DNA of 27,111 nt, taken from assembly GCA_029762535.1 (NCBI GenBank), contig JARVGK010000040.1:1-27111 (forward strand), written 5' to 3'. The notes beneath the pieces were generated by a model, which saw only the letters and a list, made by a program, of their open reading frames with translations, was not told where the DNA came from and did no database searches. Shown here piece by piece: positions 21,935 through 25,984 of the stretch. The stretch is from Thermoplasmatota archaeon (GTDB lineage: Archaea; Thermoplasmatota; Penumbrarchaeia; Penumbrarchaeales; Penumbrarchaeaceae). Within the stretch, counting starts at the first letter, position 1. The number at the start of each line of letters is the position of its first letter. The position numbers were made by a program, and so were the translations under genes.

Positions 21935-22378
21935 ATGTCCATCAAAAAAGGTGACAAGGTAAGGATAGAGTACGTCGGATGGCTGGAGGACGGAACGGTG
22001 TTCGACCGGGCCGACGACCCCGACGAGCCGTTCATCTTCACGTTCGGGACGGGGGAGGTCATACCCGCTTTCGAGGAATCGTTGAAGGACATGAAGGCTG
22101 GCGAGGAGAAGGATATCGTCCTTGAGCCAGAGGACGCCTACGGCGACCCCGACCCGAACCTGATAAGGTCCGTTCCCAGGTCGCAGTTCCCGCCGGAACC
22201 GGGCGTCGAGGAGGGGAGCATGGTGTTATTGACCCTGCCCGAGGGCGAGGAGATCCCCGCGGTCGTATGCGGGATGGACGAGGAGTCCATAGTTCTGGAC
22301 CTCAATCATCCCCTGTCCGGCATGAAATTGCGTTTCAAGCTGACGCTCAAGGAGATCATATCCTCGAAGAAGGATTGA
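21935..22378 (+). CDS. slyD: FKBP-type peptidyl-prolyl cis-trans isomerase (SlyD-like, with insert-in-flap domain, no His-rich tail), 147 aa
   Basis: KKGDKVRIEYVG.LEDGTVFD, GEVIPAFEE, PEDAYG, LDLNHPLSG.KLRF. Confidence 0.92.
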   Translation: MSIKKGDKVRIEYVGWLEDGTVFDRADDPDEPFIFTFGTGEVIPAFEESLKDMKAGEEKDIVLEPEDAYGDPDPNLIRSVPRSQFPPEPGVEEGSMVLLTLPEGEEIPAVVCGMDEESIVLDLNHPLSGMKLRFKLTLKEIISSKKD

Positions 22379-23882
22379 CGGCCTGGAACACGATCTCATC
22401 GTGCCTATTCCCGTCCACAACATGATGGTCCTTCAGCACACCCACCTCGGCGAATCCACAGCCTTTCATGGCCTTTATCGAGGCAGTGTTCTCCACGGCC
22501 GCAGTGGCCGTGACCGAACGTAGCATCTTGCGTTCGAAGGCGATCCCCAGAAGCATGCTGACCATCCTTTTCCCGTAACCCCTGCCCCGATCCCCGTTCC
22601 CACCCACCAGGCAGGATAACTCCGCGGTCGAGCTTTCCTGGTCGATGGAATATAGTGATCCGAACCCTATCGGACGGCCCGATGACTTCTCTTTTATGAA
22701 AAGGTCCACATCCCCCCTATCGGCAACAAGCATGTCCTCTACGAGATCGTCCATGTTCACGATCGTCTTCGGGGAATCCATGTACCTCGACACTTCAACA
22801 TCGTTGAACCAGTCGCGGATCGTGTTCAGATGCTCGTAGCGGGGGGCGATCCCCAAAAGAACGCCGTCATCGATGATCACCCTCTCCCCGGAGGAGGTTA
22901 TCGGCGTGATGGAATACCTCTTCAGGGCCGTATCGAGAATGCGGTTGACCATCGCCTTGTAGTCCATACCCGCAGCCCTGGAGCTCCTTGCGAACCCGGA
23001 ATCCGCGTTGATCCCCGGGTTGGGGTTGGCCTCGAGAACGTAGGGGGTACCGTCCTTCAATCGTATGTCCACCCTCGCATAGTCGTTGAGGCCCATGATC
23101 CTGAACACTTCCATGGCGGTCTTCTTGACCCTGGCCTCGGTCTCCCCTGTGAGGTCGGCCGGGCAGACCCCCCGGGTCGCCCTGTACGAGGCGGAATCCT
23201 CCAGCCATTTGGATTCGTAATCAACGATCTTCGGTTCGCCCCTTGGAATGTCGAACACTATCTCCGATACGGGCAGCGGCATCAGTTCTGACCCGTTCCC
23301 GATGACCGAGACGTTCAGCTCTCGACCGTCTATGTATTCCTCAACGAGAGCCGGCTGGTCGTAATTGGATATAACGTGATCGATCCTCTTCAGCAGGTCC
23401 AGGCGGTTAGTGACGATGGATTCCTTGGATATCCCCACCGAGGCGTCTTCCCTTATAGGTTTGACTATCAGGGGGAATACAAGTTCGGGGTTGAGCTTCT
23501 GGGAGGAGGCGAAGAACACCTGATAGTTGGGCGTCGGGATGCGGTTCGCGACCAGGACCTGCTTCGTCCTCATCTTGTTCAGGCTCATGCCCAGGGCCAG
23601 AGGTCCGGACCCGGTATAGGGAATGCCCATCAATTCGAGAAGGCCAGCGATCCAAAACTCTCCCTGCGCCCTCTCTCCATACCCCTCACAAAGGTTGATA
23701 ATGATGTCGAAGCTCGACCTGTCCAGTTTTCCGAACAGCTTTTGCCTGACCCGGACCGGAACGACATCGTGTCGATCGAGGAGGGATTTCCTTACATGAC
23801 CGACGGTCTGGAGTATCTCGTTGACGGATACGGCCTCATCCCCCGCATCATCAACTACATTGTAAAGGACGCCTATCTTCAA
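22356..23882 (-). CDS. Fusion: D-Ala-D-Ala-ligase-like ATP-grasp + RimJ/RimL/SpeG-type GNAT acetyltransferase, 508 aa
   Basis: TTG start 23882 (MKIGVLYN) after GAGGGGGG, 11 nt downstream of the previous stop; NLCEG, IPYTGSG, PLIVKPIREDASVGI, LVEEYIDGRE, DYESKW, YARVDIR, LEANPNP; GNAT motifs RGRGYG and ENTASIK...GF..VG. Confidence 0.9.
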   Translation of the reverse strand: MKIGVLYNVVDDAGDEAVSVNEILQTVGHVRKSLLDRHDVVPVRVRQKLFGKLDRSSFDIIINLCEGYGERAQGEFWIAGLLELMGIPYTGSGPLALGMSLNKMRTKQVLVANRIPTPNYQVFFASSQKLNPELVFPLIVKPIREDASVGISKESIVTNRLDLLKRIDHVISNYDQPALVEEYIDGRELNVSVIGNGSELMPLPVSEIVFDIPRGEPKIVDYESKWLEDSASYRATRGVCPADLTGETEARVKKTAMEVFRIMGLNDYARVDIRLKDGTPYVLEANPNPGINADSGFARSSRAAGMDYKAMVNRILDTALKRYSITPITSSGERVIIDDGVLLGIAPRYEHLNTIRDWFNDVEVSRYMDSPKTIVNMDDLVEDMLVADRGDVDLFIKEKSSGRPIGFGSLYSIDQESSTAELSCLVGGNGDRGRGYGKRMVSMLLGIAFERKMLRSVTATAAVENTASIKAMKGCGFAEVGVLKDHHVVDGNRHDEIVFQAVNPSSRI

Positions 23883-23893
23883 TCGATCCCCCC

Positions 23894-25984
23894 TCAAACG
23901 TTCATACTGAGATTGTACCTCTTCAGGGCGGCGTGGAGAATGGACAGGATGATATCGTCGTAGGTCATGCCGAGAGTGTAGCAGGACCGGATGAATCTGG
24001 AATTGTGCATCGGGTTGGGCATCAGTCCCGGAAGCGCGTTCACGTCGAGGACATGGGGAACGCCGCCGGAATCCAATCTGATGTCTATCCGGGCGAAATC
24101 CACGCAGCCGAGGGTGTAAAATGTCCTCTTCGCCGTCTTCTCCAGGGCGCTTTTGAGCTTGGGTTTGAGGTCCGGCGGGCATATAAGAGGGTCCACCACG
24201 TTGTCCGGATTGTCGTAGATCCACTTCGCCTCGTATGAATCGAACCTCCTCAGGCCTTCAGGCAGATGATCGAAGTCCACCTCGATCATCGGAAGCACCC
24301 TGAGCGAGCCGTTGTTACCCAGAAGTGATATCGTGAACTCCCTGCCGTCAAGGTACTCTTCGACCAGGGCCGGCTGATCGTAACCTCTCAGGACCTTGTT
24401 CACCTGCGTCTTGAGGGATGACAGGTCCTCGACCAGGCTGTCGTTGAATATGCCCACCGACGATCCCTCCGCATCCGGTTTCACGATCAAAGGGAACCGG
24501 AGGTTGGGGTCCAATCTCTGATGATTGTTCCTGAAGAGCTGGAATCGCGGGGTGGGGATCCCGTGGTAGTTCAGTATCTCCTTCTTCCTGCTCTTGTTCA
24601 ACGTTATCGCCTGGGTGAGAACGCCCGATCCGCTGTATGGGATGTTGAGCATCTCGAGTATCGCAGGGACGTGCGATTCCCTCGATTCACCATGGATCCC
24701 CTCTGCGATATTGAAGACGAAGTCCACATTGGCATCCCTGACCTTGACCAGAAAATCCTGGTCGGCCTCGAGGAGAACCGTTTCGTACCCGGCGTTCTCG
24801 ATCGTGATCCTTATGGCGTTTATGGTCTCGAGATCGTCGAATTCGGCATACTTGTCCGGCCTCTCTCCCTTTTCCGCCTCCCTCTTCAGGTTGAAGGCCA
24901 CCCCTATTCTGGATACCTTCTTGTTGTAGAGCTGCTTCTTTGAAGACCTGTCCGTCCCGGGATATGTGTACAGATTGTCCAGGAAATTGGTCACGATGAT
25001 CTGGTCCGGCGTTATGTCCTTTACGTACTGAGGGGATATCGGCACCTTTCCACCTGGTCCGTCGATCACGAAATGCGGCAGACAAAGGCCCGAAGTGTGG
25101 CCCTGTATCTGCTTCATTATCTTTATTCCGGTCTCGACTGGTGTCCGGAAATGCTCCACCCCCTTGACCAGGTCGCACTGGTAGATGTAATAGGGTCGGA
25201 CCCGGTTCCTTACCAGCCTCTTCATCAGATCGACCATGACGACCGGATCGTCGTTAACTCCCTTCAGAAGAACCGTCTGACTGCCAAGTGAGATCCCCGC
25301 GTCCGCGAGTATCCTCAGGGCGGCCGAGGACTCGGGTGTGATCTCATCAGGGTGATTGAAGTGCAGGTTCATAAATATCGGATGGTACTTCTTTATTATA
25401 TTGGCCAGTCGGACCGTTATCCTCTGGGGCTGCACGCAAGGCATGCGCGTGCCGATCCTGATTATCTCCAGATGAGGGATCGCCCTCAACCGCTTCAGGA
25501 TCTCCTCTATCTCCTGGTCCGTCCTCATCAATGGGTCCCCTCCGGAGACCACGACATCGCGGACCTCCGGATGTTCCTCTATGTAGCCTATGGCTCTGAA
25601 CACATCCTCCATGGGTATCTGCTGTATCCTGCCGACCTTTCTCTTCCTGGTGCAGAACCTGCAGTACATGGCGCATTTGCTGCTGACCAATAAAAGCACG
25701 CGATCCGGGTATTTATGCACGAGATACGGTACCGGAGTATGCTCCTCCTCCTTCAGCGGGTCCTCCACATTGAAATCATCGTGTATCTCATCCAGGTCCG
25801 GAATGGATTGCTTCCATATTGGATCCCCCATCTCCTTTATGAGAGAGAGATAATACCTCGTTGTCTTCATCGGGTACCTTCTCTTGACCTTCTCTATGTG
25901 GTCCAGGTCAGCACCCATATTCTTCAATATATCGTTCACGGCCAGCGCATTATCCTTCGAAGGTTCTTCCTCGTTATCGTTCAT
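23894..25984 (-). CDS. kamA: Fusion: KamA-family radical SAM/PLP lysine 2,3-aminomutase + D-Ala-D-Ala-ligase-like ATP-grasp, 696 aa
   Basis: HKYPDRVL, CAMYCRFCTRKR (CxxxCxxC), SGGDPL, RIGTR, HFNHPDE, QTVLLKGVND, YQCD, GHTSG, DGPGGKVP (PLP Lys); then FNIAEG, IPYSGSG, PLIVKPDAEGSSVGI, LVEEYLDGREF, SYEAKW, ARIDIR, LDVNALPGL. Confidence 0.92.
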   Translation of the reverse strand: MNDNEEEPSKDNALAVNDILKNMGADLDHIEKVKRRYPMKTTRYYLSLIKEMGDPIWKQSIPDLDEIHDDFNVEDPLKEEEHTPVPYLVHKYPDRVLLLVSSKCAMYCRFCTRKRKVGRIQQIPMEDVFRAIGYIEEHPEVRDVVVSGGDPLMRTDQEIEEILKRLRAIPHLEIIRIGTRMPCVQPQRITVRLANIIKKYHPIFMNLHFNHPDEITPESSAALRILADAGISLGSQTVLLKGVNDDPVVMVDLMKRLVRNRVRPYYIYQCDLVKGVEHFRTPVETGIKIMKQIQGHTSGLCLPHFVIDGPGGKVPISPQYVKDITPDQIIVTNFLDNLYTYPGTDRSSKKQLYNKKVSRIGVAFNLKREAEKGERPDKYAEFDDLETINAIRITIENAGYETVLLEADQDFLVKVRDANVDFVFNIAEGIHGESRESHVPAILEMLNIPYSGSGVLTQAITLNKSRKKEILNYHGIPTPRFQLFRNNHQRLDPNLRFPLIVKPDAEGSSVGIFNDSLVEDLSSLKTQVNKVLRGYDQPALVEEYLDGREFTISLLGNNGSLRVLPMIEVDFDHLPEGLRRFDSYEAKWIYDNPDNVVDPLICPPDLKPKLKSALEKTAKRTFYTLGCVDFARIDIRLDSGGVPHVLDVNALPGLMPNPMHNSRFIRSCYTLGMTYDDIILSILHAALKRYNLSMNV

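Follow-up and report, generated by a model that had tools for sequence, protein, structure and literature searches.

We found that two adjacent genes of a Thermoplasmatota archaeon encode four enzymatic domains that together look like a pathway built on beta-lysine. The genes lie in a stretch of DNA 27,111 nt long (assembly GCA_029762535.1, contig JARVGK010000040.1, positions 1 to 27,111 of the forward strand), hereafter the window. Gene A joins a KamA-type aminomutase of the radical S-adenosylmethionine (SAM) and pyridoxal phosphate (PLP) kind to an ATP-grasp ligase resembling D-Ala-D-Ala ligase (Ddl), here called AG1, and gene B joins a second such ligase, AG2, to an acetyltransferase of the GNAT family. 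We put at about even the chance that this predicted two-gene operon is a self-contained line of four activities leading to a small N-acetylated product in the cytoplasm, either an amide of beta-lysine or a di- or tripeptide that contains it. An earlier note on this DNA, made from the letters alone, had described two co-oriented genes 11 nt apart, one encoding KamA fused to a ligase and the other a second ligase fused to a GNAT, and open reading frames and Pfam searches confirmed this layout. The parts of the locus are as follows (a double colon denotes a fusion).

23894-25984, reverse strand: gene A (P0001), KamA-type radical-SAM/PLP aminomutase::ATP-grasp ligase AG1 (open reading frame, translation, Pfam/NCBIfam)
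24935-25984, reverse strand: KamA domain, residues 1-350 of gene A (match to 2a5h, conserved residues)
24923-24985, reverse strand: inter-domain linker, residues ~334-354 of gene A, predicted to be flexible (predicted local distance difference test, pLDDT)
23897-24922, reverse strand: AG1, Ddl-like ATP-grasp ligase, residues 355-696 of gene A (Dala_Dala_lig_C, 2e-31)
23883-23893, reverse strand: 11-nt spacer with a G-rich ribosome-binding stretch, GGGGGGATCGA (read directly)
22356-23882, reverse strand: gene B (P0003), ATP-grasp ligase AG2::GNAT acetyltransferase (open reading frame, Pfam)
22878-23882, reverse strand: AG2, second Ddl-like ATP-grasp ligase, residues 1-335 of gene B (Dala_Dala_lig_C, 7.2e-35)
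22359-22865, reverse strand: GNAT domain of the Acetyltransf_3 type, residues 340-508 of gene B (Pfam, 1.4e-16)

Gene A runs from an ATG at 25984 to a TGA at 23894-23896 (696 amino acids) and gene B from a TTG at 23882 to its end at 22356 (508 amino acids), the spacer GGGGGGATCGA lying between the TGA of the one and the TTG of the other. The N-terminus of gene B that begins at this TTG lines up with the MKIG(I/V)LYN start of 32 homologues, and a longer frame opening with a GTG and reaching to 24224 was therefore rejected as gene B. Besides the ligase domain, Pfam recognised Radical_SAM (3.8e-15) and LAM_C (2.9e-11) in gene A.

The aminomutase domain retains the catalytic residues of lysine 2,3-aminomutase. 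Residues 36-343 of gene A matched the solved C. subterminale enzyme (2a5h) at E 4e-108, with a CxxxCxxC motif at residues 104-111 (C104, C108 and C111), and Asp293, Asp330 and Lys337 of 2a5h align to D271, D308 and K313. The cysteine motif, R113, D271, D308 and K313 were invariant in 113 of 113 family members. We take Asp293 and Asp330 to be the pair that contacts the epsilon-ammonium group of lysine, Lys337 to be the PLP lysine and the arginine to bind the carboxylate, roles that are reportedly described by Lepore et al. 2005 and Ruzicka & Frey 2007. Glutamate 2,3-aminomutase has Lys and Asn in place of this acidic pair. The presence of the lysine-type pair in gene A and throughout its family is in line with the earlier suggestion that lysine is the substrate of the mutase. 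Gene A scored above the cut-off of the KamA family model (TIGR00238, 287.3 bits against 199.2), and the AblA equivalog (TIGR03820) was still the top mutase model at 421.1 bits, below its cut-off of 525.4; the glutamate mutase (368 against a cut-off of 650) and arginine mutase (329 against 600) models both came behind it, and the EpmB model reached 234 bits against 369. The LAM_C match covered the first 71 of 127 profile positions only, marking the domain as a short KamA with a truncated LAM_C region, and its predicted structure had a pLDDT of mostly 85-97.

Other genes of the genome bear on where beta-lysine would go. In the window genome, which is 93% complete, we found a single KamA, no match to AblB (TIGR03827) at E <= 0.001 and no beta-lysine 5,6-aminomutase. 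The AblB search gave matches in 6 of 14 control genomes, 2 of them over the cut-off, and the search for the 5,6-aminomutase recovered the enzyme of Promethearchaeum syntrophicum MK-D1 as a positive control. One KamA accompanied by neither of these partners suggests that the beta-lysine most likely goes to the fused ligase rather than into fermentation or the classical acetyl-beta-lysine route, and the missing AblB fits the earlier proposal of a route other than AblA/AblB.

AG1 and AG2 are paralogues (39% identity) and the only Ddl-like genes of this genome, which has no Ddl above cut-off. Their best solved relatives were Ddl enzymes (E 5e-29 for AG1 and 8.6e-31 for AG2, E. coli DdlB), and no PylC chain was found among the PDB sequence matches of either at E <= 1e-3. 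Both fell under every NCBIfam Ddl/Van cut-off, with 174.4 (AG1) and 179.0 (AG2) bits against 243 for PRK01372, and 154 and 160 bits against 245.65 for TIGR01205. E. coli DdlB, whose numbering is used here, served as the reference for an alignment of 108 AG1 and 96 AG2 domains. The ATP/Mg set of K97, K144, E180, E187, K215, D257 and N272 was invariant in all of them, R255 was invariant in AG1 and present in 93 of the 96 AG2 domains, and position 270 was always E or D. Judged by these residues, neither ligase would be a pseudoenzyme, and both are predicted to be catalytically competent.

The substrate side of the pocket has changed. H63 is replaced by E and M259 by R in every AG1 and AG2 sequence, Y216 by W in 88 of 108 AG1 and 96 of 96 AG2 domains, and E15 mostly by D in both. 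Changes specific to AG1 are Y210 to D and L282 to R, with S150 retained, and those specific to AG2 are G149-S150 to D-A, H280 to D and L282 to G, so that neither ligase carries the full D-Ala subsite set of E15, H63, S150, Y216, M259 and L282. Several of the altered positions presumably line the two D-Ala subsites of DdlB. From this pattern we infer that the pockets may accept charged substrates, as would suit a diamino acid, and that the specificities of the two paralogues may differ. The view that these ligases are not true Ddl enzymes is thus supported twice, by the model scores and by the altered D-Ala-site positions.

The C-terminal domain of gene B is a clear GNAT (Acetyltransf_3, 61.9 bits against a cut-off of 25.4; model pLDDT 93). 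Its Foldseek neighbours were the lasso-peptide lysine acetyltransferase 9iy3, SpeG polyamine acetyltransferases, MccE and a RimJ-like enzyme, with a template modelling (TM) score of 0.8-0.88 to SpeG and 9iy3, and sequence searches returned AAC(6') and SpeG. The predicted fold fits acetylation of a primary alkyl amine and is weak evidence for the exact site. Bacterial cassettes hold a GNAT of ~160 amino acids of the Acetyltransf_7/1 type in the same slot, with 20% identity to the Acetyltransf_3 domain of the window, and all 8 of 8 sampled open reading frames between AG2 and KamA were GNATs of this type. The use of two GNAT subfamilies in one slot, Acetyltransf_3 fused in archaea and Acetyltransf_7/1 in bacteria, argues that acetylation is integral to the pathway.

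We found the same domains fused in five patterns, namely KamA::AG, AG::KamA, AG::GNAT, AG::AG and the double fusion KamA::AG1 + AG2::GNAT. Among the homologues listed for gene A and gene B there were 103 KamA::AG, 17 AG::AG and 9 AG::KamA proteins, together with 59 AG::GNAT proteins from Thermoplasmatota, Lokiarchaeota/Promethearchaeota and Methanocellales. Among the named sources of these fusions are the archaeal Thermoplasmatota, Methanocellales, Woesearchaeota, Nanoarchaeota and Lokiarchaeota/Promethearchaeota as well as the bacterial Spirochaetales, Deltaproteobacteria, Omnitrophota and Eubacteriales. In the family to which the window belongs, gene A was present in 11 of 23 sampled genomes and was directly followed by a gene-B-like ligase in all 11 (G005 has its gene A broken across two contig ends); in the five relatives inspected at the locus, the GNAT was fused in 4 and separate in 1. 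The fusions recur on many independent contigs from different sources and are therefore not assembly artefacts, an outcome that the earlier note had named as one that would count against its proposal. Its Rosetta-stone argument is strengthened as well, since the same four domains occur in several fused and unfused arrangements.

These arrangements vary between lineages. Methanocellales have KamA::AG1 + AG2 + GNAT, a deltaproteobacterium has KamA::AG1 with two AGs and no GNAT, a woesearchaeon has KamA::AG1 + AG2 near MscL and cation-exchanger genes, and one locus (L032) has AG::KamA + GNAT + AG adjoining a DHDPS gene. In another (L031, 1024-5196), an AG::KamA fusion has as its neighbours a protein with a faint AMP-binding match and a Peptidase_S51 gene (cyanophycinase/dipeptidase E family), a setting that hints at peptide turnover in that lineage. 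Four relatives from the window's family also carry a third, unlinked AG-like ligase in open frames of 538-566 amino acids (G004:C3:91695-92744, G015:C60:1579-2643, G019:C73:8375-9364 and G022:C169:3163-4149), which the window's own genome lacks.

A pattern scan built on the AG1 alignment and run on one genome per prokaryotic species returned at least 600 stretches, and we inspected the best 80. Two AGs, KamA and a GNAT of ~160 amino acids were present in 44 of these 80 loci, mostly in the order AG1-AG2-GNAT-KamA, and two AGs with KamA in a further 6; KamA lay within 5 kb in 55. The four separate genes confirm the unfused kamA-ddl-ddl-GNAT clusters that the earlier note had placed in anaerobic bacteria. 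The cassette spans > 15 phyla, in mostly uncultured organisms and often with its order conserved, and cultured carriers of the full set are Ignavibacterium album, a Melioribacter strain and Stygiobacter electus. Across this distribution the ligase pair appears as the constant core, with a dedicated KamA usual and not universal.

Structure prediction suggested that the two ligases work as a pair. We predicted the AG1-AG2 complex from the own alignments of each family, with three controls. The interface score ipSAE was 0.80, 0.80 and 0.78, and the best of the three controls gave 0.00; the ipSAE mark was reached by 58 of 80 solved complexes and by 2 of 110 mismatched pairs. Contact agreement between runs was >= 95% and partner pLDDT >= 84, with the predicted interface placing residues ~407-485 of gene A against residues ~50-113 of gene B, which we believe to be the face used by solved Ddl homodimers. 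The 17 tandem AG::AG proteins are independent support for a physical ligase pair, and AG1 and AG2 probably pair through the Ddl-type dimer face. In the AlphaFold model of full-length gene A both domains were confident and the whole-protein predicted TM score (pTM) was 0.52. The pLDDT of the linker dropped below 50 at residues 334-338 and 344-353, which suggests that it acts as a flexible tether between KamA and AG1.

Taking the domain identities, catalytic residues, independent fusions and linkage as observed, we infer what each ligase uses, in which order the steps run, where the acetyl group is placed and what the product does, as follows. KamA, using its [4Fe-4S] cluster, SAM and PLP, would convert L-lysine to beta-lysine, and AG1, tethered to KamA, would take beta-lysine as a building block for an amide bond made by way of an acyl-phosphate. 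AG2, paired with AG1 through the Ddl-type dimer face, would add or prepare a second bond, again through an acyl-phosphate, and the GNAT fused to AG2 would move the acetyl group of acetyl-CoA to the remaining free alkyl amine of the product. We clustered 894 open reading frames from 91 loci and found only lineage-specific synteny, for example with RecG; neither there nor in the family relatives was a transporter or any other gene conserved beside the cassette. Because no transporter is conserved next to it, the product probably stays in the cytoplasm. Our best guess at its role, a tentative one held well short of even, is a compatible solute or stress protectant, following the logic of N-epsilon-acetyl-beta-lysine and of NAGGN, the dipeptide osmolyte made by Ngg.

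Several observations weigh against an acetylated beta-lysyl product made in this way, or against parts of it. Many host metagenome-assembled genomes (MAGs) come, by their record titles, from groundwater, soil and hot springs, a poor fit to a high-salt osmolyte. Fourteen of the 80 best loci, mostly in Myxococcota-type MAGs, hold two AGs only with no KamA nearby, and P. syntrophicum MK-D1 has AG1 + AG2::GNAT and no dedicated KamA, its sole KamA being 1.8 Mb from the ligase pair in a kamA-kamDE lysine-fermentation cluster; beta-lysine may consequently not be an obligatory substrate. Some cassettes, those of the deltaproteobacterium and the woesearchaeon, have no GNAT. The AG1-AG2 score may reflect memory of Ddl homodimer structures, and the prediction does not separate a heterodimer from homodimers. 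Lastly, the model of gene A fixes no orientation between KamA and AG1 and holds no evidence for substrate channelling, and we therefore make no claim of it.

The loci with ligases alone lead to an alternative that we consider unlikely, in which the ligase pair is the real unit and has no need of beta-lysine, KamA being an add-on that supplies one possible substrate, or in which the acetyl is a transient protecting group removed later. AG1 + AG2::GNAT in MK-D1 and the tandem AG::AG fusions of Myxococcota type, which have no nearby KamA, speak for it; however, KamA lies within 5 kb in most of the best loci, it has been fused to AG1 in both domain orders, and the KamA of MK-D1 can still supply beta-lysine from a distance. 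An oligomer or polymer, such as epsilon-linked chains of beta-lysine or a cyanophycin-like isopeptide, would have the ligases alternate or iterate and the GNAT cap the chain. The similar design of the AG1 and AG2 pockets, the Peptidase_S51 gene directly after the AG::KamA fusion in L031 and the third AG gene of the deltaproteobacterial cassette can be read this way, but Ddl-fold enzymes are in general single-turnover dipeptide ligases, the peptidase occurs in that one locus and is not conserved, and no primer or carrier gene is conserved either, and we regard such a chain as quite unlikely. Attachment of beta-lysine to a macromolecule (for example a translation factor, a polymer of the envelope or a target that bears polyamine), in the manner of EpmA/EpmB or of RimK-type tailing, appears improbable. 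The KamA paralogue EpmB does feed a protein modification (PMC2821294). The ligase pair of MK-D1 (L014, CP042905.2, 2943-9566) also lies ~3-4 kb from divergent genes for a pyruvoyl arginine decarboxylase and a deoxyhypusine synthase, which may be a polyamine/hypusine context or coincidence; yet these neighbours are on the opposite strand and were not seen elsewhere, all solved relatives found are small-molecule Ddl/Van ligases, and no target or carrier gene is conserved nearby.

Still more improbable in our estimate is a secreted bioactive beta-lysine compound, with the GNAT giving self-protection like streptothricin acetyltransferases, as the earlier note had offered for one role of this domain. 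Beta-lysine is indeed part of several antibiotics, and MccE, an enzyme of self-immunity, is among those whose fold the GNAT resembles. The self-protection role found no support, however, for no exporter, regulator, further tailoring gene or other partner is conserved; the cassette is a minimal, housekeeping-like unit with a conserved order in > 15 phyla, unlike a typical biosynthetic gene cluster, and its GNAT is fused to a biosynthetic ligase. It is hardly credible that AG1 and AG2 do the usual work of a D-Ala-D-Ala or depsipeptide ligase in building a cell-wall-type peptide. Ddl enzymes are their best Pfam, NCBIfam and PDB matches, but both lie below every Ddl/Van cut-off, the H63E, M259R, Y216W and E15D changes are invariant or predominant, D-A replaces G149-S150 in AG2, the host is an archaeon, and the ligases are fused to KamA and GNAT.

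The small acetylated beta-lysyl product, which we favour over these alternatives, can be set beside several known systems. In the AblA/AblB pair of methanogens and the KamA(YodO)/YodP pair of Bacillus, which make N-epsilon-acetyl-beta-lysine, a KamA-family mutase with the same lysine-binding residues is likewise linked to a GNAT; the cassette differs in that two ATP-grasp ligases are inserted, KamA scores below the AblA cut-off, the GNAT is of the Acetyltransf_3 type and the genome lacks an AblB match. With DdlB and VanA the ligases share the fold, all ATP, Mg and acyl-phosphate residues and the predicted dimer face, whereas their pocket residues are charged or bulky, two paralogues obligately co-occur, KamA and GNAT are fused to them and the host is archaeal. 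The PylB/PylC pair of pyrrolysine biosynthesis turns lysine into an unusual diamino acid by means of a radical-SAM mutase, and its Ddl-like ligase then links this product to the epsilon-amine of lysine as an isopeptide. The same logic of a mutase followed by a Ddl-like ligase holds for the cassette, although PylB is not of the KamA family and the cassette adds a second ligase and an acetyltransferase and has no PylD.

Two further systems offer partial likenesses. EpmB and EpmA, which act on EF-P, resemble the cassette in that a dedicated ligase receives its beta-lysine from a short KamA paralogue whose LAM C-terminal region is incomplete, but that ligase is a LysRS paralogue acting on a protein, and gene A is below the EpmB cut-off. 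Ngg presumably has a domain order reversed relative to gene B and an ATP-grasp domain of a different subfamily. Ngg is described in PMC8070244, citing Sagot et al. 2010, as one protein that N-acetylates glutamine and forms a peptide bond to give an osmolyte dipeptide. By analogy only, Ngg (with AsnO) and the cassette share acetylation and ATP-dependent peptide-bond formation in one polypeptide and would share a small cytoplasmic dipeptide as product; the substrate of Ngg is glutamine, and the cassette has no amidotransferase partner.

In free-living microbes, beta-lysine is mainly an acetylated osmolyte of methanogens, an intermediate of lysine fermentation and part of a few antibiotics. We hold with moderate confidence a model, at the level of chemistry, in which the cassette adds a twin module of Ddl-fold ligases to a beta-lysine pathway. 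Searches of open-access papers and bioRxiv preprints yielded no description of a pathway combining KamA or beta-lysine with an ATP-grasp or Ddl enzyme, and database names are generic ("KamA family radical SAM protein", "GNAT family N-acetyltransferase"). Content, and often order, conserved in many phyla together with repeated independent fusion would imply a widespread, undescribed compound derived from beta-lysine, and the pathway would define two new substrate specificities in the well-studied Ddl fold. A bolder form, which we think possible and rather doubtful, is that N-acetylated beta-lysyl peptides are a new metabolite class, made on a tethered hetero-oligomer (KamA dimerising, AG1 and AG2 paired). 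Anaerobes of > 15 phyla, among them Asgard, Bathyarchaeia, Thermoplasmatota, DPANN and Ignavibacteriota, would then commonly have such a compound in the cytoplasm, as a solute or in a part like that of a cofactor. If so, it could do more than protect against osmotic stress and might, in lineages that have no glutathione, serve as a protectant of low molecular weight. The double fusion reduces the system to two co-expressible genes, and the cultured carriers, three bacteria for the full cassette and P. syntrophicum for the ligase/GNAT part, make the question directly testable.

Two flanking features suggest the limits of the transcription unit.

25985-26286, reverse strand: intergenic region upstream of gene A, ~300 nt (read directly)
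21932-22378, forward strand: FKBP-type peptidyl-prolyl isomerase gene (FKBP_C, 1.1e-19)

The FKBP gene converges on gene B, the last 23 nt of which it overlaps. This convergent gene downstream and the intergenic region upstream mark genes A and B, by position, as a predicted two-gene operon. The sequence TTTATATA at 26208-26215, ~224 nt upstream of the gene A ATG, is a candidate promoter, which would give gene A a long leader. Rfam, searched over 21600-26400, returned no family at E <= 1 in the upstream region and no leader riboswitch, its only match being a C/D-box inside gene A (E 0.26) at chance level. An open reading frame of 121 amino acids at 21727-22092 (reverse strand) is probably spurious, having no Pfam match and no relatives and overlapping the FKBP gene.

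The window is archaeal, as seen from the ribosomal protein L15e encoded at 15981-16595 and from the closest named homologues of the cassette proteins, which are from Thermoplasmatota MAGs at ~70% identity. Its other genes include an APC-type amino-acid permease at 19650-21605 (forward strand; AA_permease_2, 8e-50) with a C-terminal PTS_EIIA_2 domain (1.7e-11), a regulatory fusion unusual in an archaeon. No other gene of the window was found again beside the cassette in relatives, and this holds for the permease, the 121-residue frame and the PKD protein described below. A polyferredoxin-like membrane protein with Fer4_5 and other 4Fe-4S domains is encoded at 17684-19608 (forward strand) and overlaps a 471-residue open reading frame that has no Pfam match. 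Two likely large surface proteins are encoded on the reverse strand, one of 1284 amino acids with CarboxypepD_reg and Big_5 domains at 10560-14414 and the other a PKD protein with a zinc-ribbon region at 26287-27111, which is cut by the window end.

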